DNA of 38,621 bases from a virus. Lineage: Duplodnaviria > Heunggongvirae > Uroviricota > Caudoviricetes. The position numbers and the translations under genes were made by a program. Below are positions 5,117 to 15,269 of this stretch, piece after piece. The stretch's first letter is position 1. Each line of letters opens with the position of its first letter. The stretch lies in IMG/VR virus record IMGVR_UViG_2541047830_000013; one strand, given 5' to 3'. Under the pieces are notes generated by a model. It was not told the origin of the DNA and did no database searches. It saw only the letters and a program-made list of their open reading frames with translations.

Positions 5117-7939
5117 ATGACGGCAGAGTACATCAGGGACTGGCAACAACCGCGCCACGCAGTGGGGCGTGAAGGAACGGGGATCCCCGCTCCTGAATCC
5201 GCGCTTTCCTCCTGGCTGGATGCCTACCGGGTAGAGAACGAGCACCGCCAGGAAATGGCTGATGCGGCGTTCTCCGCAACGCCGCTGGGCAACCTGATTA
5301 ATAAAAGCCTGGACGCACAGGAAAAACAGGACAAAACCATCACACTGGCAGGAGATGCCAGAAAACAGGCACGCGGCGCGGTGGATGAAGCCATGGCCTC
5401 GCTGCGCCTGCTGCCGTCCTATCTGCGCGATCCGCTTATTCGCCACCTCTCCTTCCTGCGCAAAAAACAGGAAGCCGATCGTCAGAAAGGCAAAAAGAGC
5501 TGGCAGGCTGAACGCTACGCGCGCGGAAACCTGCGCAAAATATTCGAACGTCTGGAGCGCACCGATCACCGCTGGCTGACACAGGGTTATCGCTCCCTTG
5601 CCGGACGCGAACGCCTGGACGATTTGCTTTACCTGCCGCAGCTCAACAAACACCAGATACAGACACTGGCCACCATGACGGCGGCGATGTTCAGCAGCAC
5701 CTTCGAAAAACTCTGCGATGGCTTTGGCGCGACCGATGGCGAACTGACCATGGATGTAACGCTGAAGGCGTATCAGATGCTGGCCCGCATGGCGTTACAC
5801 CTGCACGCCATGCCTCCACATTATGACGCACTGACAACAGACAAAGACCAGAGGAACGAACCGGACACGGAGCTGCTGCCGGGCGCAATCCTTCGCCTGA
5901 CCTGTGCAGAATGGTGGAAACGCAAACTGTGGCTGTTACGTTGCGAGTGGAGAGAAGAACAACTCCGCGCCGCCTGTCTGGTTTCCAGAAAAACATCGCC
6001 CTATCTGAGCCAGGACGCGTTAAGCGAGTTTCGCGCACAGCGCGAGAAAACACGCGATTTCCTGAAAAGTTTCATGCTGGAAAATGAAGACGGGTTCACG
6101 ATTGATCTCGAGACGGTGTATTACGCGGGAGTAAGTAACCCGGTTCACCGTAAGGCAGAAATGATGGCCACCATGAAGGGGCTGGAACTTCTGGCCGAAG
6201 CCCGTGGCGACAAAGCGGTGTTTCTGACTGTCACCTGCCCGTCAAAATACCACGCCACAACAGAGAACGGTCATCCGAATCCCAAATGGAACGGGGCCAC
6301 CATGCGCGACTCCAGCGATTACCTGGTTAACACGTTTTTTGCGGCGGTCCGCAAAAAACTGAACCGCGACGGTCTTCGCTGGTATGGCATCCGCACGGTG
6401 GAGCCTCACCATGACGGCACCGTGCACTGGCATATGATGGTCTTTGCTCATCCGGAAGAAATCGACAGCATCGTGGCCATCACCCGCGATATTGCCATTC
6501 AGGAAGACCGCCACGAGCTGGGCAATGATATTACTCCGCGCTTTAAGGCGGAGTATGTCGACGGCTCAAAAGGCACACCAACCAGCTATATCGCGACCTA
6601 CATCGGAAAGAACCTGGACAGCCGCGCCGTGGATGGCATCGACCCGAAAACGGGCAAGCCACGCGTTGACCACGAAACCGGAAAATCAATGGCCGAGAGT
6701 GTGGAGCGCGCCATCGGCTGGGCGCGCCTTCATCGGGTCCGCCAGTTCCAGTTCTTTGGCATCCCCTCCCGTCAGGTGTGGCGTGAACTGCGCCGCCTTG
6801 CCAGCCAGATGGCACGCAACCCGGAAGGCCCGCAACGACTGAAAGATGACGCAATGGATGCGGTACTCGCTGCCGCCGATGCCGGGTGTTTTGCCACCTA
6901 CATTGAAAAACAGGGCGGCGTACTTGTTCCACGCAAAGACTACCTGATTCGCACCGCCTACGACCTCGCAGATGAGCTGAATGATTACGGCGAACAGAGC
7001 GTACAGATTTACGGGATCTGGTCACCACTCATCGGGGAATCCTCCCGTGTGTGCACGCATCCGGATAACTGGAAACTGGTAAGACGTAAACCGGAAACGG
7101 AAGACAGCGCCCGCGAAAATGGTTTTGACCTTCAGGGCGGCCCTGCCGCCCCTTGGACTCGTGGCAATAACTGTCCCCGTGTACAGGAAACGGACAACAA
7201 CGGGACAGAACAGCCGGAAGAACGGCCAGCACCGTGGCCGCAGCTCCCTGACGGCGTTGAAGTGAACGAATGGATGCGCTCACTGAAACGACACGAACGC
7301 CGGGCGCTGATGCGTTCGCTTCGTGACAAACAGGCAAAAAACAGCAGCGATGAAATGCAGAGCTGGACACAGAGCCGCAAACAGCAGCGGCCTTTGCCTG
7401 ATAACCACGAATTACTCGCTAAAGAATGGCGGGAGTCTGCTGAATCTCTCGGCCTGCATATCGGTGAACAACAGATGCAGCACCTGTTACGGGGCGGCAG
7501 TCTGTACGTTGACGGCAGCATCATTGCACCGCAGGGATTTGAAATTGTACGCAAACCGGATACCCGCCCGGACAGCCGAATCACGCAGCTCTGGCAGCGC
7601 CTGAGCCGTAATCACGGCGTAAGCAGCACGGAGATCCGCCATAACCCGGTCTCCAGCTATCTGGCACAGCTCGGGGCATCAGACCCCGAAGCCGCCGCAC
7701 GCCTGGCATCCACACTTCAGCAGGTCCAGAACACCATGAAAACACCCGTTACCGTGCTTTCTGACATGCTGCGCGCCATTCGTGACGCAGAGCACGCACA
7801 GAGAATCAGAGAAACCACTGAACGCGCCCGCCGCAAAGCAAACCTGCTGAGGGCTGGCCTGACCAGTGGAAACAAAAAACAGACAGAAACGGGATTCACA
7901 AATCCCGTAAATGAGCAAAAAACGCGCCGCGATATATGA
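5117..7939 (+). CDS. A: Rolling-circle replication initiator (P2 gpA-like, HUH endonuclease)
   Basis: 940 aa; HUH-type motif VHWHMMVF (HWH codons 6425-6433); paired catalytic tyrosines YIATY (codons 6587-6589 and 6599-6601); position after the early operon. Confidence 0.9.
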   Translation: MTAEYIRDWQQPRHAVGREGTGIPAPESALSSWLDAYRVENEHRQEMADAAFSATPLGNLINKSLDAQEKQDKTITLAGDARKQARGAVDEAMASLRLLPSYLRDPLIRHLSFLRKKQEADRQKGKKSWQAERYARGNLRKIFERLERTDHRWLTQGYRSLAGRERLDDLLYLPQLNKHQIQTLATMTAAMFSSTFEKLCDGFGATDGELTMDVTLKAYQMLARMALHLHAMPPHYDALTTDKDQRNEPDTELLPGAILRLTCAEWWKRKLWLLRCEWREEQLRAACLVSRKTSPYLSQDALSEFRAQREKTRDFLKSFMLENEDGFTIDLETVYYAGVSNPVHRKAEMMATMKGLELLAEARGDKAVFLTVTCPSKYHATTENGHPNPKWNGATMRDSSDYLVNTFFAAVRKKLNRDGLRWYGIRTVEPHHDGTVHWHMMVFAHPEEIDSIVAITRDIAIQEDRHELGNDITPRFKAEYVDGSKGTPTSYIATYIGKNLDSRAVDGIDPKTGKPRVDHETGKSMAESVERAIGWARLHRVRQFQFFGIPSRQVWRELRRLASQMARNPEGPQRLKDDAMDAVLAAADAGCFATYIEKQGGVLVPRKDYLIRTAYDLADELNDYGEQSVQIYGIWSPLIGESSRVCTHPDNWKLVRRKPETEDSARENGFDLQGGPAAPWTRGNNCPRVQETDNNGTEQPEERPAPWPQLPDGVEVNEWMRSLKRHERRALMRSLRDKQAKNSSDEMQSWTQSRKQQRPLPDNHELLAKEWRESAESLGLHIGEQQMQHLLRGGSLYVDGSIIAPQGFEIVRKPDTRPDSRITQLWQRLSRNHGVSSTEIRHNPVSSYLAQLGASDPEAAARLASTLQQVQNTMKTPVTVLSDMLRAIRDAEHAQRIRETTERARRKANLLRAGLTSGNKKQTETGFTNPVNEQKTRRDI

Positions 7940-8979: not shown

Positions 8980-9294
8980 ATGACGACACCAACCAGACGG
9001 ATAAGTTTCTATCTGAAGCCCGCCGCCGTCAAGAGTGAACAGGAGGCGTGCAATTACCTCGATAGCCTGCCAGCCTCCGAACGCAGCCGCGCGCAACGCG
9101 CGGCCTTTCTGGCTGGGCTAGCGCTCATAAAGCGCAACCCAGCATTTGCCTACTGGATGGCCGAATGGCCAGAGGACAACCTCCCCTTCAATACCGTTAG
9201 CATCAAGGAAACATACCAGGATAATCAGCCTAGCGGAGTTGAATGCAATTTTTATAAAATAAAAAAGAATATTCAGACCTTATTCCCAGAATAA
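8980..9294 (+). CDS. parR: ParR/StbB-like centromere-binding adaptor
   Basis: LDSLPASERSRAQRAAFLAGLAL resembles R1 ParR LDSIPQGERSRLNRAALTAGLAL as recalled; directly downstream of the ParM-like gene. Confidence 0.7.
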   Translation: MTTPTRRISFYLKPAAVKSEQEACNYLDSLPASERSRAQRAAFLAGLALIKRNPAFAYWMAEWPEDNLPFNTVSIKETYQDNQPSGVECNFYKIKKNIQTLFPE

Positions 9295-9342: not shown

Positions 9343-9367
9343 TGGCACCCTTGCTAACAGGGTGCCA
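9343..9367. terminator. Hairpin between convergent parR-like and membrane-protein genes (8-bp stem tggcaccc / gggtgcca)
   Basis: Read directly; no strong U-tract, so terminator function is inferred from position. Confidence 0.35.
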
Positions 9368-9377
9368 ATGTTTCAAA

Positions 9378-10220
9378 TCATGATGAAATTGCCGAAGTTT
9401 TTTTATCGTGCTGAAGTACCGCAAATGCCATTAAAACCTCAAGAGAATAGCGGCGATAATACTTAACAAAACCATAATAAAATACTCGGGATGCAGCAAT
9501 ACAAAACAAGAGAAGAAAACAAAAAGGTAACAGTCTGATATTTATATCTATTAAAAAGGATAGAAGGAGCAGGAACATAAGCAACCAGACTGAAGCGAGA
9601 AAAACAAATGTAATGTTTCTACAAAAACCATACAAAGCAACATAGTTTTGCATTTTCACCTGATGATTTTTAGAATGTTCATACACATAATGATAAGCAA
9701 GGCGAAAAAGATCGCCCCTCAAGCCCTTACGTCGATATAGCGTAGATACAGAAAAAACATTTATATAACCATCTCGTATTTGCGGCCAAAAGACTTTAAT
9801 AAGTATAGAATGCAGTGTGGTTTTATGATGTTCTGCTTTATCAAAAGCTGATACAGGAAATAAAAAAACTCCACGAATAAAATTAACTATACTGAACTTA
9901 GTATTATGTCGTTTTATTTTCAGGGAGCTTCTTTTAGAAAACAGATAAATTGAAGGATACCCAAGTTTACTGTTCATGTATTTTTCAATTAAACAGGATG
10001 ATAGAATAGATATGAAGTGACCTGAAATATATGATAGAACGATTAATACCACATATATAAATACACTTATTATTTCTTTATATTTCAGGATATGGTTAAG
10101 AATACCTTCTATATAAACAGGGTTAATTTCAATAGAAAACAAAAAAAGGATAAACAGGAATAACCCACCTGGAATTAGATAGCCCAAAAAGTCATAAAAT
10201 GAAAACGGATTCTGTGTCAC
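9378..10220 (-). CDS. AT-rich multi-pass membrane protein (280 aa), function unknown
   Basis: At least 4-5 hydrophobic helices; strongly AT-rich relative to the phage backbone; GTG start with AGGGGGAA upstream; second gene of a minus-strand pair. Confidence 0.6.
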   Translation of the reverse strand: MTQNPFSFYDFLGYLIPGGLFLFILFLFSIEINPVYIEGILNHILKYKEIISVFIYVVLIVLSYISGHFISILSSCLIEKYMNSKLGYPSIYLFSKRSSLKIKRHNTKFSIVNFIRGVFLFPVSAFDKAEHHKTTLHSILIKVFWPQIRDGYINVFSVSTLYRRKGLRGDLFRLAYHYVYEHSKNHQVKMQNYVALYGFCRNITFVFLASVWLLMFLLLLSFLIDINIRLLPFCFLLLFCIAASRVFYYGFVKYYRRYSLEVLMAFAVLQHDKKTSAISS

Positions 10221-10429
10221 ACTTCCCCCTGTGTTACTTGTAAATTAAAGGGTAAAACATTATTTGTTTTTCCGTAAAGGATTAGCTTTCCATCTTCTTA
10301 CTAACCATTCGAATTCTTGATATGTAGTATCCGAATTAATGCTTTCTCTGATTGCTTTAATTAATGGCTCGGCAATATCATATGTCTCTACAACTGTTGT
10401 GTAAGATGTTCTTTTTATCATTTTTTCAT

Positions 10430-10438
10430 CATAAATAC
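10430..10438. repeat. Left copy of 9-bp target-site duplication cataaatac
   Basis: Identical to 11496-11504, immediately flanking the IS ends. Confidence 0.85.
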
Positions 10439-11495
10439 GGCTTTGTTGAATAAATCGAACTTTTGCTGAGTTGAAGGATCAGATCACGTATCTTCCCGAC
10501 AACGCAGACCGTTCCGTGGCAAAGCAAAAGTTCAAAATCACCAACTGGCCCACCTACAATAAAGCCCTCATCAACCGTGGCTCCATAACTTTCTGGCTGG
10601 ATGATGAAGCTATTCAGGCCTGGTATGAGTCAGCAACACCTTCTTCACGAGGCAGACCTCAGCGCTATTCTGACCTTGCCATCACTACTGTGCTGGTCAT
10701 TAAACGCGTATTCAGGCTGACCCTGCGGGCTGCGCAGGGCTTTATTGATTCCATTTTTTCTCTGATGAACGTTCCGCTACGCTGCCCGGATTACAGCTGT
10801 GTCAGCAGGCGGGCAAAGTCGGTTAATGTCAGTTTCAAAACGCCCACCCGGGGTGAAATCGCACACCTGGTAATTGATTCCACCGGGCTGAAGGTCTTCG
10901 GTGAAGGCGAGTGGAAAGTCAAAAAGCATGGCCAGGAACGCCGCCGTATCTGGCGTAAGCTGCATCTCGCCGTTGACAGTAAAACACATGAAATCATCTG
11001 CGCTGACCTGTCGCTGAACAACGTTACGGACTCAGAGGCCTTCCCCGGGTTAATCCGGCAAACCCACCGGAAAATCAGGTCAGCCGCCGCCGATGGCGCT
11101 TACGATACCCGGCTATGTCACGATGAACTGCGGCGTAAGAAAATCAGCGCGCTTATCCCTCCCCGAAAAGGTGCGGGTTACTGGCCCGGTGAATATGCAG
11201 ACCGTAACCGTGCAGTGGCTAATCAGCGAATGACCGGGAGTAATGCGCGGTGGAAATGGACAACAGATTACAATCGTCGCTCGATAGCGGAAACGGCGAT
11301 GTACCGGGTAAAACAGCTGTTCGGGGGTTCACTGACGCTGCGTGACTACGATGGTCAGGTTGCGGAGGCTATGGCCCTGGTACGAGCGCTGAACAAAATG
11401 ACGAAAGCAGATATGCCTGAAAGCGTGCGTATTGCCTGAAAACACAACCCGCTACGGGGGAGACTTACCCGAAATCTGATTTATTCAACAAAGCC
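10439..11495 (+). mobile_element. IS903 (IS5 family), complete 1057-bp copy
   Basis: Terminal inverted repeats ggctttgttgaataaatcg at 10439 and its reverse complement ending at 11495; 1057 bp; single transposase ORF; perfect 9-bp direct repeats on both sides. Confidence 0.9.
10516..11439 (+). CDS. IS903 transposase (307 aa from GTG)
   Basis: Sequence recalled as IS903/IS102-type transposase; track ORF begins at TTG 10471, likely GTG 10516. Confidence 0.85.
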   Translation: MAKQKFKITNWPTYNKALINRGSITFWLDDEAIQAWYESATPSSRGRPQRYSDLAITTVLVIKRVFRLTLRAAQGFIDSIFSLMNVPLRCPDYSCVSRRAKSVNVSFKTPTRGEIAHLVIDSTGLKVFGEGEWKVKKHGQERRRIWRKLHLAVDSKTHEIICADLSLNNVTDSEAFPGLIRQTHRKIRSAAADGAYDTRLCHDELRRKKISALIPPRKGAGYWPGEYADRNRAVANQRMTGSNARWKWTTDYNRRSIAETAMYRVKQLFGGSLTLRDYDGQVAEAMALVRALNKMTKADMPESVRIA

Positions 11496-11504
11496 CATAA
11501 ATAC
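11496..11504. repeat. Right copy of 9-bp target-site duplication cataaatac
   Basis: Identical to 10430-10438. Confidence 0.85.
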
Positions 11505-11837
11505 CTTCACGAATACTTACAGCAACTCGCTCGTAAAAATTTAAAATATATTGAAATTTTCGACGCTCGGCCATTTCTTCATCTGTTATTATGCAACCAT
11601 CACAAGGAAAAACATAAGAACGAAATGATTTGCCTGAACGATGCACTTGTTTCAGGGTATGCAATGACTCTATATATTGCATATCTTGCCGACTCTCAAA
11701 AAGAAAGTTGGCCGTTTGAGTTTTTTTTGCGGTACGCACATTGTAGATAATGGTTCCAATGGCAACCAAAACGCCAAGCAGAACAATAGCATTGCTGATG
11801 ATTTGTAGTGTTATTGGGTTCATCCTATTTCATCCAT

Positions 11838-11864
11838 AAAAAAGGCGGGGAGCAAATCCCCGCC
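11838..11864 (-). terminator. GC-rich hairpin with U-run on the minus strand (ggcgggga-gcaaa-tccccgcc); possible cos-proximal element
   Basis: Stem 11844-11851 / 11857-11864 with a T6 run on the minus strand; minus-strand core GAGGCGGGGA matches part of the P2 cohesive-end sequence as I recall it. Confidence 0.4.
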
Positions 11865-12020
11865 TCATTAGAGGTCAACGTAGCTTAGAAACCATCAAAT
11901 TCATCATACATTTTTTTCATATCAACCCCCTCATAGAAATCATAACCACGTTTTGTGGTTTTTGTGACGTATAAACTACATCAAAGGCAAGCCACGGTCA
12001 AATATATAGGCATGCTTACC

Positions 12021-12471: not shown

Positions 12472-13518
12472 TCAGGATGTGGGCTGGGTGTCCAGCAGTG
12501 CGTAAGGGTTAAAGCGGATCACCTCTTCGCCAAGCCAGTCATTGATATGCTTCATGGCCTCCATGACGGGCATCAGCTCGTTAATTGCGTAAACCCGCGC
12601 GGCCTTCTCCACATCACCAAACGCACTTTTTTCGCCCGGCATCGCCCCCATCAGTTGCGGCGGAACGCGGTGCGCGGCCAGCACATCATCACGGGATGCC
12701 GCCTTAACATTCATAAACTCATCCTTTGCGGTGATCTGCTGGAACGGCAAAATTTGCACACCTTCTTTGCCCCCATTGGGCGCATGAATGAGCACGTTTT
12801 TAAATGCACCACCACCACGCGCACCCTGTAACGTTTCTTTCAGGGAGTCCATGCTTTCGCGGTTTACCTGCGCTGCACCGATGTAGATGATGCACCCGGC
12901 GTGGGATCCGTTGTCGTAGTACAGTTTTCTGAACATGTCCGCCGAATGAGACAGGCTGGCCGAGAGTAATGCGCCAAGATATTCCGGCATGCCGTAGATT
13001 TCCTGGTTAATATCCGGATTCATCAGGTGGCACACTTTGCCAGGGCGAAACTGAAACGCCTCCTTGCCATCCTGCACATACCACCATGATTCAAGATCGC
13101 TTCCGCGTCGCATGTATTTCGCCAGGGCGTGCCGTAATTTAAGCGGTTCGCCGAGCATATTGCTTCGAAGCTCAAGGAATGCGTTACCGAACACAAACCA
13201 GTCCAGCGCCAGCGCCGAGAAATCCTGCCGGGAAAGCAGCGGATGCGGAATATAGCAGCCGAGCAATACATTACGCTTAAAGTAAAGCGCAGACTGATGC
13301 CAGGACGTTTGCCGGGCAGCTCTTGCCAGACCGTACCAGTCCACCGGAGTTTCATACCATCGCCCGTTATCAGCACAGTACATATTGTCCAGCAGGTCAT
13401 GCCCGGTCAGGCGGTAAGGACCATCAAATGTGAATGCACTGAGCGACGATTCTTTCCTGAGCGCATCAGCGAGATCAATGCGTGAACTCATGCGCACTTT
13501 TTTATTTTTTCTGCTCAT
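12472..13518 (-). CDS. Q: Portal protein (P2 gpQ-like)
   Basis: 348 aa, size and position match P2 Q; ATGA overlap with the upstream terminase gene. Confidence 0.9.
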   Translation of the reverse strand: MSRKNKKVRMSSRIDLADALRKESSLSAFTFDGPYRLTGHDLLDNMYCADNGRWYETPVDWYGLARAARQTSWHQSALYFKRNVLLGCYIPHPLLSRQDFSALALDWFVFGNAFLELRSNMLGEPLKLRHALAKYMRRGSDLESWWYVQDGKEAFQFRPGKVCHLMNPDINQEIYGMPEYLGALLSASLSHSADMFRKLYYDNGSHAGCIIYIGAAQVNRESMDSLKETLQGARGGGAFKNVLIHAPNGGKEGVQILPFQQITAKDEFMNVKAASRDDVLAAHRVPPQLMGAMPGEKSAFGDVEKAARVYAINELMPVMEAMKHINDWLGEEVIRFNPYALLDTQPTS

Positions 13519-15269
13519 CAGAACTCCATAACCGTGAAACGCTCGTTTTCTCCTTCGCCGCCAATCGGTTCGTTAATGACAGCAAGCATGGTTGCCCACG
13601 CAAGGTCGCCGTGGCTGATCCCCCTCGCGCGGTCCGTTTCGTAAGTGATAAAGCCACCCGGTGTTTTCACCTTACGCACGGCGTTAAAGGCCGCGACCAG
13701 CTCGCGTTCGGCGCGATCGTATTCCCACCGCCCGGCACGCATTATTTGCAGCATTTTCAGTACCAGCGACCGTTTTGATGACAGCGTGAAGGTGTACGGA
13801 ATAGCAGCAGGGAAAAACCGTTTCACTATCTGATAAACAGCCTCCCCGTTCCCGCCCGTCACATCAATGCCGATGTGTTCCACGTTGTAGCGACACGTGA
13901 ACTCTTCAATGACTCTGGCCTGTTCTTCAAACTCCAGCCCCTGAACGCGTCGCGTCTCCACCGTTCGAAAACGGCCACCAGGAACAGCTGGAGGAACCAC
14001 CACGGACACCGCGCCACTGTCGCCGTTTCCACTGCTGCCGTTTGCGTCATACCCAATCCATACCGGACGATTCCCCATCGGGCGGGGAGCAAAAGGTTTC
14101 CAGTCTTTCCAGTCGTCGTATCCATCAACGCCGCAGCCAATCAGGATATTCAGGTTAAATGCCGATTCCCCTTCGCGGACAAACTCACACATATAGAGAT
14201 TGCGGAACTCGTCTTCGGTGTTTTCATCACGAATTTCATCAATATCGGTGTGTTTCCAGCCGTGATTAACCACATCTTCCAGCGTGACAATTTGCCGCCA
14301 CGTCCGGTCGGGGCAGATAAGCCCGTTATGCAGCGTTTTCCAGTCCACAGAAAAACGCTGGCGTTTATGCGCGGCCTTTTTCTCGTTCCAGCGGTCGCCG
14401 TTCCAGTAGACGTATGCCTCGTGCGTTTCGGTTGATGGCGTGGAGAAGTAGGTGCGTCGCAGCCCGCTGAGGGTTGCCATAGCGCCAGCCACCTTGCGCA
14501 GTTCAGCAAAGCGACTGACCCAGAAAAATTCATCAAAATAAAAATTGCCTGTGTAGGACTGTGCCGTCGCAGCAGAAGTACCGAGAAAATGCAGTTCTGC
14601 GCCGTTGGAGAGGATGATTTTATCGCCCCCTTTCAGCTCCACATCAACTTCAGATGCAGCCTTCTGAATAATGCTTTTAAACTGGAACGCCTGACGACGC
14701 GACGCAGACAAAAAAATCTGGTTACGCTGGTAAGGTTGCGCCACATTGTCACGCAGCGCCATCAGCAGTGCTTCCTGTGCAAAATACCAGGTCGCCCCAA
14801 TCTGTCGGGATTTCAGGATCATCCTGTTACGTATCCCGGCTTCCCTGCAAAGGGTCAGGGAGTCAAACCAGCCCCGCTGATGCCACTCCAGCCTGCTGAT
14901 GATTTTTTCCCGCAGTGCGGCAATCTGTTCCGGCGTGAAATGATTTTTGAGTTTTTTCGCCCGGCCTTTCTTTCCTGTGGCCGTCGCATCCGGCTGGCCA
15001 TCATGCAGTTTTTTAAGCTGCCGGGTCAGCAGGTCTATTTCCTTAAAGTCACCGCCTGTTTTATTCTGTTTTTCAGTAAGCTGGATGAGGCGCGCATCGA
15101 TGGACTGCGTGACACGCTGCACGGGTGGCGTTTCATCCCACTGGTCGCGTTTTTTCCACGCATAAATCGTGTTCGGGTTTATTCCCATCAGACGTGATAT
15201 TTCAGCGGGCGGATAACCCTGCCAGTAAAGTTGTCGCGCACGCTGGCGCACAAAAGCGTCCTGAATCAT
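13518..15269 (-). CDS. P: Terminase ATPase subunit (P2 gpP-like)
   Basis: 583 aa; divergently arranged from the capsid operon as in P2. Confidence 0.9.
   Translation of the reverse strand: MIQDAFVRQRARQLYWQGYPPAEISRLMGINPNTIYAWKKRDQWDETPPVQRVTQSIDARLIQLTEKQNKTGGDFKEIDLLTRQLKKLHDGQPDATATGKKGRAKKLKNHFTPEQIAALREKIISRLEWHQRGWFDSLTLCREAGIRNRMILKSRQIGATWYFAQEALLMALRDNVAQPYQRNQIFLSASRRQAFQFKSIIQKAASEVDVELKGGDKIILSNGAELHFLGTSAATAQSYTGNFYFDEFFWVSRFAELRKVAGAMATLSGLRRTYFSTPSTETHEAYVYWNGDRWNEKKAAHKRQRFSVDWKTLHNGLICPDRTWRQIVTLEDVVNHGWKHTDIDEIRDENTEDEFRNLYMCEFVREGESAFNLNILIGCGVDGYDDWKDWKPFAPRPMGNRPVWIGYDANGSSGNGDSGAVSVVVPPAVPGGRFRTVETRRVQGLEFEEQARVIEEFTCRYNVEHIGIDVTGGNGEAVYQIVKRFFPAAIPYTFTLSSKRSLVLKMLQIMRAGRWEYDRAERELVAAFNAVRKVKTPGGFITYETDRARGISHGDLAWATMLAVINEPIGGEGENERFTVMEF

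Follow-up and report, generated by a model that had tools for sequence, protein, structure and literature searches.

A DUF4760 gene with a conserved upstream micro-ORF and terminator, and a separate membrane-protein gene, in the gpA-gpQ hotspot of a P2-like prophage

The IMG/VR virus record IMGVR_UViG_2541047830_000013, whose full 38,621 nucleotides are referred to here as the window, is a P2-like prophage with an AT-rich stretch between the replication gene gpA and its ParM/partition pair on one side and the portal gene Q on the other. This stretch holds two genes on the minus strand, a DUF4760 gene interrupted by the insertion sequence (IS) IS903B and a second membrane-protein gene, called gene B here. 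Comparisons across loci identify a short open reading frame (the mini-ORF) and an intrinsic terminator upstream of DUF4760 as a real conserved partner of this gene, which was missed in a preliminary description made from the sequence alone. Additionally, the comparisons lead us to conclude, with high confidence in the genetic architecture, that DUF4760 and gene B are separate accessory modules that lie adjacent in one E. coli P2-like lineage, and not a two-gene system. The gpA-gpQ interval of P2-like phages was defined as a defence hotspot by Rousset et al. 2022 (PMC9122126), and our best overall explanation, to which we give about even chances, combines the two modules with a role in phage conflict. 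The locus is already catalogued and uncharacterised; new here are the conserved micro-ORF and terminator partner, the EP-like fold predicted for DUF4760 and the weakly Csx27-like character of gene B.

The mini-ORF and terminator upstream of DUF4760

The elements upstream of DUF4760 follow one another in the order promoter-like site, Shine-Dalgarno (SD) sequence, mini-ORF, 18-nt spacer, terminator, approximately 18 nt and the DUF4760 ATG.

11939..11968, minus strand: sigma-70-like promoter candidate GTCACA-18-TATGAT, from a consensus scan only and alone not above chance
11932-11926, minus strand: strong SD GAGGGGG of the mini-ORF
11885..11920, minus strand: unannotated mini-ORF encoding MKKMYDEFDGF, 11 codons and a TAA, intact in the window
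11842..11866, minus strand: strong intrinsic terminator GAGGCGGGG-loop-CCCCGCCTT with a T-run, from a terminator scan

A short ORF, an intrinsic terminator and then the regulated gene is the arrangement of a leader attenuator. By a strict peptide motif, the mini-ORF was present upstream of DUF4760 in 95 of the 103 evaluable loci, and variant peptides (DENDGF, IGGF, EGWDGF, EGWDGY, DGWDDI) were found in six of the remaining eight. The last two comprise one locus with a mutated stop codon (L021) and one in which the upstream region is replaced by unrelated sequence (L044). Motif-bearing mini-ORFs occurred elsewhere only once in the 1.86 Mb of strand sequence of all loci; the motif was defined after the data had been seen, but its specificity is still striking.

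The two exceptional loci can be described further. In L021, from Enterobacter pulveris, the mini-ORF stop has become TAC, the peptide is extended by four residues (DEFDGFYIMK, then a stop) and the terminator is kept. In L044 (IMGVR_UViG_2718217897_000009), which is otherwise 99% identical, unrelated sequence takes the place of the mini-ORF and of the terminator's 5' arm, ending within the hairpin. This natural "leaderless" variant could be informative.

The encoded peptides are 8-27 amino acids (aa) long and end in D/E-E-F/Y-D/E-G/W-F. Conservation is focused on the last six codons before the stop, while the N-terminal part varies in length and sequence. Synonymous codons replace one another at the conserved residues, and each of the three stop codons occurs. 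Similarly, the terminator is kept in position with covarying stems in ~47 of the 58 unique leaders; the stems differ in sequence with pairing kept, and most begin 15-25 nt past the mini-ORF stop. Together, the synonymous variation and the covarying stems indicate that peptide and hairpin alike are under selection. The most distant homologs have no terminator; in them the DUF4760 ATG directly adjoins or overlaps the stop of the mini-ORF (TAATG), which indicates translational coupling. The unit ranges from Enterobacterales to phages of Pseudomonas and Acinetobacter: in Pseudomonas phage vB_PaeS-D14E a mini-ORF ending in REEYEGI precedes a DUF4760 of 37% identity, and in Acinetobacter phage BUCTT20 one ending in NEGWDF precedes a DUF4760 of 26% identity. 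Annotation pipelines systematically miss this gene of 9-27 codons, the most conserved companion in the module.

Two other elements of the leader were observed. The sequence ATGGATGAA follows the terminator T-run at 11833-11841 and likewise in most enterobacterial leaders, conserved as nucleotides and inconsistent in frame, and Enterobacterales also conserve a GTTRACCTC box ahead of the terminator, in the spacer. We rejected a second small ORF (ATGGATGAA...) with coupling to the start of DUF4760, because its frame is not conserved across loci, and GTTRACCTC and TATGGAT, which flank the terminator, were rejected as a split promoter because the spacer between them is 34 nt.

The module resembles ToxIN-type and toxin-antitoxin (TA)-like operons and the MgtL and TnaC attenuators in placing a small upstream element and an intrinsic terminator before a potentially harmful protein. 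Unlike ToxIN and TA operons, the upstream element is neither an RNA repeat nor a folded antitoxin but a gene for a peptide of 9-27 aa; the peptide sequence itself appears to be under selection, as in the leader-peptide attenuators MgtL and TnaC.

The mini-ORF could check DUF4760 in either of two ways. Acting in cis, the acidic nascent peptide would serve as a leader that controls read-through or coupled translation, a mode favoured by the conservation just before the stop codon. Acting in trans, an over-produced and labile peptide would fill the conserved N95/E98/K115/R137/W156 site of the protein, with the terminator setting a high ratio of peptide to protein; this mode is favoured by the coupled arrangement of the distant homologs and by the absence of a predicted antiterminator. 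A free cytoplasmic peptide of 9-13 aa would be unusual, which counts against the action in trans. The SSB C-terminal tip is DDDIPF (PMC7913777), and the tail predicted for the mini-ORF peptide, DEFDGF-COOH, resembles this DDDIPF-COOH end; we regard the likeness as a lead and not a test.

An alternative that we consider possible, though with well under even chances, is that the mini-ORF is purely a cis leader, in which the nascent DEFDGF peptide stalls or destabilises the ribosome and tunes read-through or coupled initiation, and DUF4760 is the sole effector. Nascent peptides of acidic MgtL-type leaders reportedly stall or destabilise the ribosome. The conserved last six codons behind a variable N-terminus, the strong SD and the conserved spacing of 15-25 nt from stop to terminator are all consistent with such a leader, and the overlapping stop and start in distant homologs would tie DUF4760 initiation to the leader stop. 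However, RNAalifold, applied to the leaders, predicted no structure besides the terminator and an A-tract/U-tract pairing, and no alternative antiterminator, the terminator begins outside the footprint of a ribosome at the stop codon, and no Rfam family matched the leader.

The interrupted DUF4760 gene and its neighbour, gene B

Downstream of the leader, the DUF4760 gene, the IS and gene B are arranged as follows.

11505..11823, minus strand: 5' fragment of the DUF4760 gene, with the ATG at 11823, a transmembrane (TM) helix at residues ~8-30 and the beginning of the predicted cytoplasmic helical domain
11496..11504: right copy of the target-site duplication CATAAATAC, 9 bp
10439..11495, plus strand: IS903B, 1057 bp, with 18-bp terminal inverted repeats GGCTTTGTTGAATAAATC
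10516..11439, plus strand: IS903B transposase, GTG start, 307 aa
10430..10438: left copy of the target-site duplication CATAAATAC, 9 bp
10260..10438, minus strand: 3' fragment of the DUF4760 gene, codons 110-165 and a TAA at 10262-10260, holding one copy of the duplication
9378..10220, minus strand: gene B, 280 aa, with a GTG start preceded by GGGGGAAG and four hydrophobic segments, intact

The element at 10439..11495 matches annotated E. coli copies of IS903B with 100% identity and has each of the properties of IS903 (IS5 family), namely a length of 1057 bp, 18-bp repeats, a 9-bp duplication and a 307-aa DDE transposase. It lies after codon 109 of the DUF4760 gene, and the 9-bp direct repeats on its two sides match perfectly. 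Removal of the IS and one repeat copy in silico gave an uninterrupted frame of 498 nt, ending at the TAA at 10262-10260, which encodes a 165-aa protein with one N-terminal TM helix. The sequence of this protein and that of WP_001068329.1, the intact allele of other E. coli prophages, are 100% identical. A search of 5,426 complete E. coli genomes found the exact IS junction nowhere, in keeping with a private and recent insertion. The preliminary description had proposed the split after codon 109 by IS903, the restored frame and the recent date, all of which agree with these results. It had also called both genes far more AT-rich than the backbone, and the GC content is indeed 35% for the DUF4760 gene and 32% for gene B, against 51% for the window; that of the IS is 53%. 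Its statement that the pair was inactivated by IS903 applies to the DUF4760 gene and not to gene B, whose reading frame is intact.

The minus-strand pair had been described as a 165-aa protein with one TM helix followed ~40 bp later by a 280-aa multi-pass protein, and we find a spacer of 39 bp and four TM helices in gene B. A probe of 1.1 kb identified the intact pair, which had been proposed as something to look for in other prophages, in 289 of the 5,426 complete E. coli genomes (~5%), many of them ST131 clinical strains, and three deposited phages also carry it. The further proposal that the two genes form one cassette did not hold. Gene B accompanies a DUF4760 homolog in only 11 of 104 loci, and these 11, which match the window allele at 98.8% identity or more, all come from a single E. 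coli lineage. Elsewhere, DUF4760 genes of 78-88% identity occupy this P2 position without gene B: those of other P2-like prophages, next to cos, are 79% and 88% identical, and Citrobacter phage Shae_phiSM has portal, DUF4760, parP, parM and gpA, the layout of the window minus gene B. Conversely, homologs of gene B (44-45% identity) stand alone in lambdoid prophages, either in a CPS-53-like early region or beside DUF4224 and an integrase. The co-occurrence across lineages expected of a two-gene defence system was not found.

An obligate two-gene membrane defence or conversion operon, as the earlier view had it, would account for the shared strand, the short spacer with no terminator, the similar AT content, the co-inheritance in 289 genomes and the lack, in the window, of the upstream promoter region that gene B has elsewhere. 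The rarity of gene B among DUF4760 loci, its confinement there to near-identical copies, the DUF4760 genes that occupy the same P2 position without it and the homologs (44% identity) that occur without DUF4760 in lambdoid prophages all argue against such an operon, which we consider very unlikely.

The relation between the two modules in the window may instead be one of shared transcription. Standalone gene B homologs have their own AT-rich upstream region of 110-150 nt. This region is missing in the window, where the spacer is 39 bp and holds no terminator, and gene B, placed behind DUF4760, therefore probably relies on the DUF4760 transcript. If so, the IS, which has recently destroyed DUF4760, is likely to be polar on gene B, with the mini-ORF and gene B themselves left intact.

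Gene B belongs to the WP_000193205 family and to phrog_12528. It is predicted to be an inner-membrane protein with both termini inside, four TM helices and a basic cytoplasmic loop of ~115 aa. It matched no Pfam family, neither protein matched NCBIfam, and a structure search with its model (predicted local distance difference test, pLDDT, 70) gave no informative match. Gene B did match the Csx27 hidden Markov model (HMM) of PADLOC at E=1e-5; the model has no curated cutoff, and the match may partly reflect the TM and AT-rich composition common to both, a point that counts against the relationship. Among 38 relatives, 37 matched most of the same HMM, the best at E=5.6e-8; "tm_4" was matched by 12 as well. 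Csx27 is a four-TM accessory protein of type VI-B1 CRISPR-Cas, with a wider membrane family in other defence-like contexts (Makarova et al. 2019, cited by PMC8209922 and PMC7642515). Gene B is weakly Csx27-like by this HMM and is likewise predicted to have four TM helices. In contrast to Csx27, which comes from Bacteroidetes, gene B is enterobacterial and prophage-borne, ~80 residues longer and provided with a large conserved cytoplasmic loop; its neighbours are prophage genes, with no cas13b or type VI-B CRISPR array beside it. In our view gene B is probably a distant member of the wider Csx27 membrane family.

The DUF4760 protein and the possible role of its module

The rejoined protein belongs to Pfam DUF4760 (PF15956; 119.3 bits against a gathering cutoff of 25, E=1.8e-34). 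The alignment is near full length, with residues 12-156 on profile positions 2-141 of 141, and the protein also matches phrog_2284 (E=8e-74). The family comprises 2,568 clusters at 50% identity, and almost all of its 150 best-scoring representatives are single-domain proteins of 150-200 aa. Residues L94-N95-x-x-E98, E111, K115, R137 and W156 are near-invariant across the family. The N-terminal TM helix is followed by a basic flank, RTAKK, and by a helical domain of ~130 aa, which is likely to be cytoplasmic because of the positive-inside rule as applied to this flank. Polar TM residues were rejected as evidence of a pore, since Q7, S10 and N28 are conserved within Enterobacterales only and not across the family.

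The AlphaFold2 model of DUF4760 (pLDDT 92.8) has the all-helical fold of the EDS1-family EP domains, which by two methods were its sole strong structural neighbours. With Foldseek, EDS1-family chains ranked top by TM-score (0.47-0.58, with no other chain above 0.31), with E-values that were not significant. The EDS1_EP Pfam model gave no match to DUF4760 at E<=1, a profile search of the PDB with DUF4760 returned no EDS1, a sequence search of the PDB returned nothing meaningful, and hhalign of AtEDS1 395-623 against the DUF4760 profile gave a probability of 0.35%. We conclude that the modelled DUF4760 shares the EP fold of EDS1, PAD4 and SAG101 at the fold level only, with homology unproven.

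In plants, the EP domain of EDS1, PAD4 and SAG101 is the receptor for TIR-made pRib-AMP/ADP and ADPr-ATP. DUF4760 differs from it in having a membrane anchor and no lipase-like domain, in being ~100 residues shorter and in sharing only 6-10% identity, and no TIR gene was seen near DUF4760 in the neighbourhoods scanned. It is conceivable, and in our estimate very unlikely, that DUF4760 is the counterpart of this domain in bacteria and phages, namely a ligand receptor tethered to the membrane and encoded in the immunity hotspots of prophages, which would be restrained by the acidic micro-peptide, or would sense its displacement, and on activation would collapse the membrane. If this were true, the EP domain, so far considered plant-specific, would gain a prokaryotic relative, as the TIR and NLR modules already did.

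DUF4760 lies at a variety of sites that are typical of morons expressed during lysogeny, and these contexts bear on its possible role. In Pseudomonas phage D14E the gene lies directly downstream of cI, and in Acinetobacter and Alteromonas phages it adjoins the integrase; other sites are immI-like regions by Arc and Ant, positions between tail genes and the P2 hotspot. Its distribution is patchy and horizontally mobile across unrelated phage types. No conserved protein neighbour was found in the neighbourhoods scanned, and a cI-type repressor was rejected as a conserved left neighbour because it occurs only in phage D14E, the other left neighbours of ~240 aa being tail proteins (K/I) and others.

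We propose, at slightly less than even chances, that the DUF4760 module acts in phage defence or conflict. It would be a self-contained unit of promoter, SD, mini-ORF, intrinsic terminator and a single-pass inner-membrane protein, expressed by the prophage in the lysogen and acting in phage-phage conflict by exclusion or abortive infection through its membrane anchor. A second module, gene B, would be an independent Csx27-like four-TM protein. Cargo of the P2 hotspot described by Rousset et al. 2022 (old, tin, the 2TM+1TM+TIR system of phage AC1, Hydrolase+3TM and HP+4TM) occupies the same slot and is likewise AT-rich and small, often with membrane proteins. The pair in the window differs from these systems in having no sequence similarity to them (PADLOC) and no enzymatic or TIR partner.

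Several observations weigh against this proposal. DUF4760 also occurs as chromosomal orphans between housekeeping genes, either between the ast operon and GGDEF genes or by ABC transporter genes, with no obvious defence islands, and these copies hold our confidence in a defence function to a middling level at most. PADLOC v2 has no model for DUF4760. The catalogue of Rousset et al. 2022 (PMC9122126) includes the locus, which is not among the systems cloned there, whether validated or negative. Furthermore, the EP likeness is at the fold level only, and its aligned region takes in the TM helix.

Given these orphans, a different role could be considered, in which the module is a lysogenic-conversion or host-fitness factor (envelope, stress) or benefits the prophage itself, for instance in controlling lysis or induction. 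The absence of a match to any defence-system HMM is consistent with such a role, as is the non-defence cargo of the P2 hotspot, which includes par systems and toxins (PMC9122126). However, DUF4760 is found beside cI, immI and int and within hotspots where anti-phage genes are known to abound, and its patchy, mobile spread over unrelated phage types also argues for conflict; we consider the different role unlikely.

The preliminary description had recognised neither protein as a described defence or conversion system, and our searches agree: the DUF4760 protein matched only DUF4760, gene B has no family, and PADLOC v2 gave no system-level match. Old, Tin, PARIS and any other PADLOC v2 system were rejected for DUF4760, the best match being the candidate PDC-S35 at E=0.004, with 4 of 38 members matching. 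Profile searches identified no O-antigen or housekeeping homology for either protein. SieA of P22 (164 aa) is like DUF4760 in size, in its inner-membrane location and in its moron-type position, and some DUF4760 copies lie in immI-like regions; as a relative it was rejected, since hhalign gave probabilities of 0.3% against DUF4760 and 0.2% against gene B and both sequence and topology are unrelated. A search of the literature found no paper on DUF4760 function or on the mini-ORF peptide motif, and DUF4760 was mentioned once in passing in one paper. Our results provide three testable objects: a widespread micro-ORF/terminator/DUF4760 module of temperate phages of Gammaproteobacteria, a prokaryotic protein that may be related to the plant EP domain in structure and a weakly Csx27-like protein without a CRISPR context.

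The gpA-gpQ interval of the window

The genes that flank the stretch are the following.

5117..7939, plus strand: replication gene gpA, 940 aa
8016..8975: ParM (StbA) gene, after gpA
8980..9294: small partition/stability gene, after ParM
12472..13518, minus strand: portal gene Q
13518..15269, minus strand: terminase gene

The preliminary description had placed the pair in the tin/old hotspot. Its position between gpA (5117..7939) and Q (12472..13518) matches the definition in PMC9122126, with the replication gene A on one side and cos and the portal gene Q on the other, and annotated relatives have the same layout. A ParM-type pair is present in about a quarter of P2-like phages and may permit plasmid maintenance (Rousset et al. 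2022, PMC9122126).

Other features of the interval were observed alongside the two modules. The C-terminal third of gpA is of low complexity with abundant charged residues; gpA of P2 itself, at ~760 aa, is clearly shorter than the 940-aa protein of the window. Between the convergent partition gene and gene B, at 9344-9366, lies a GC-rich perfect 7-bp hairpin, GGCACCC-N9-GGGTGCC, which has no T-run on either strand and was therefore not called by the terminator scan. Beside the portal gene, the window (12478-12491) lacks a segment of 625 bp that is present in L002 (6115-6739) and that in ST131-type relatives encodes a 174-aa hypothetical protein, WP_000236495. The shorter version, without this segment, was matched at full length in 280 E. 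coli genomes, O157:H7 strains included.

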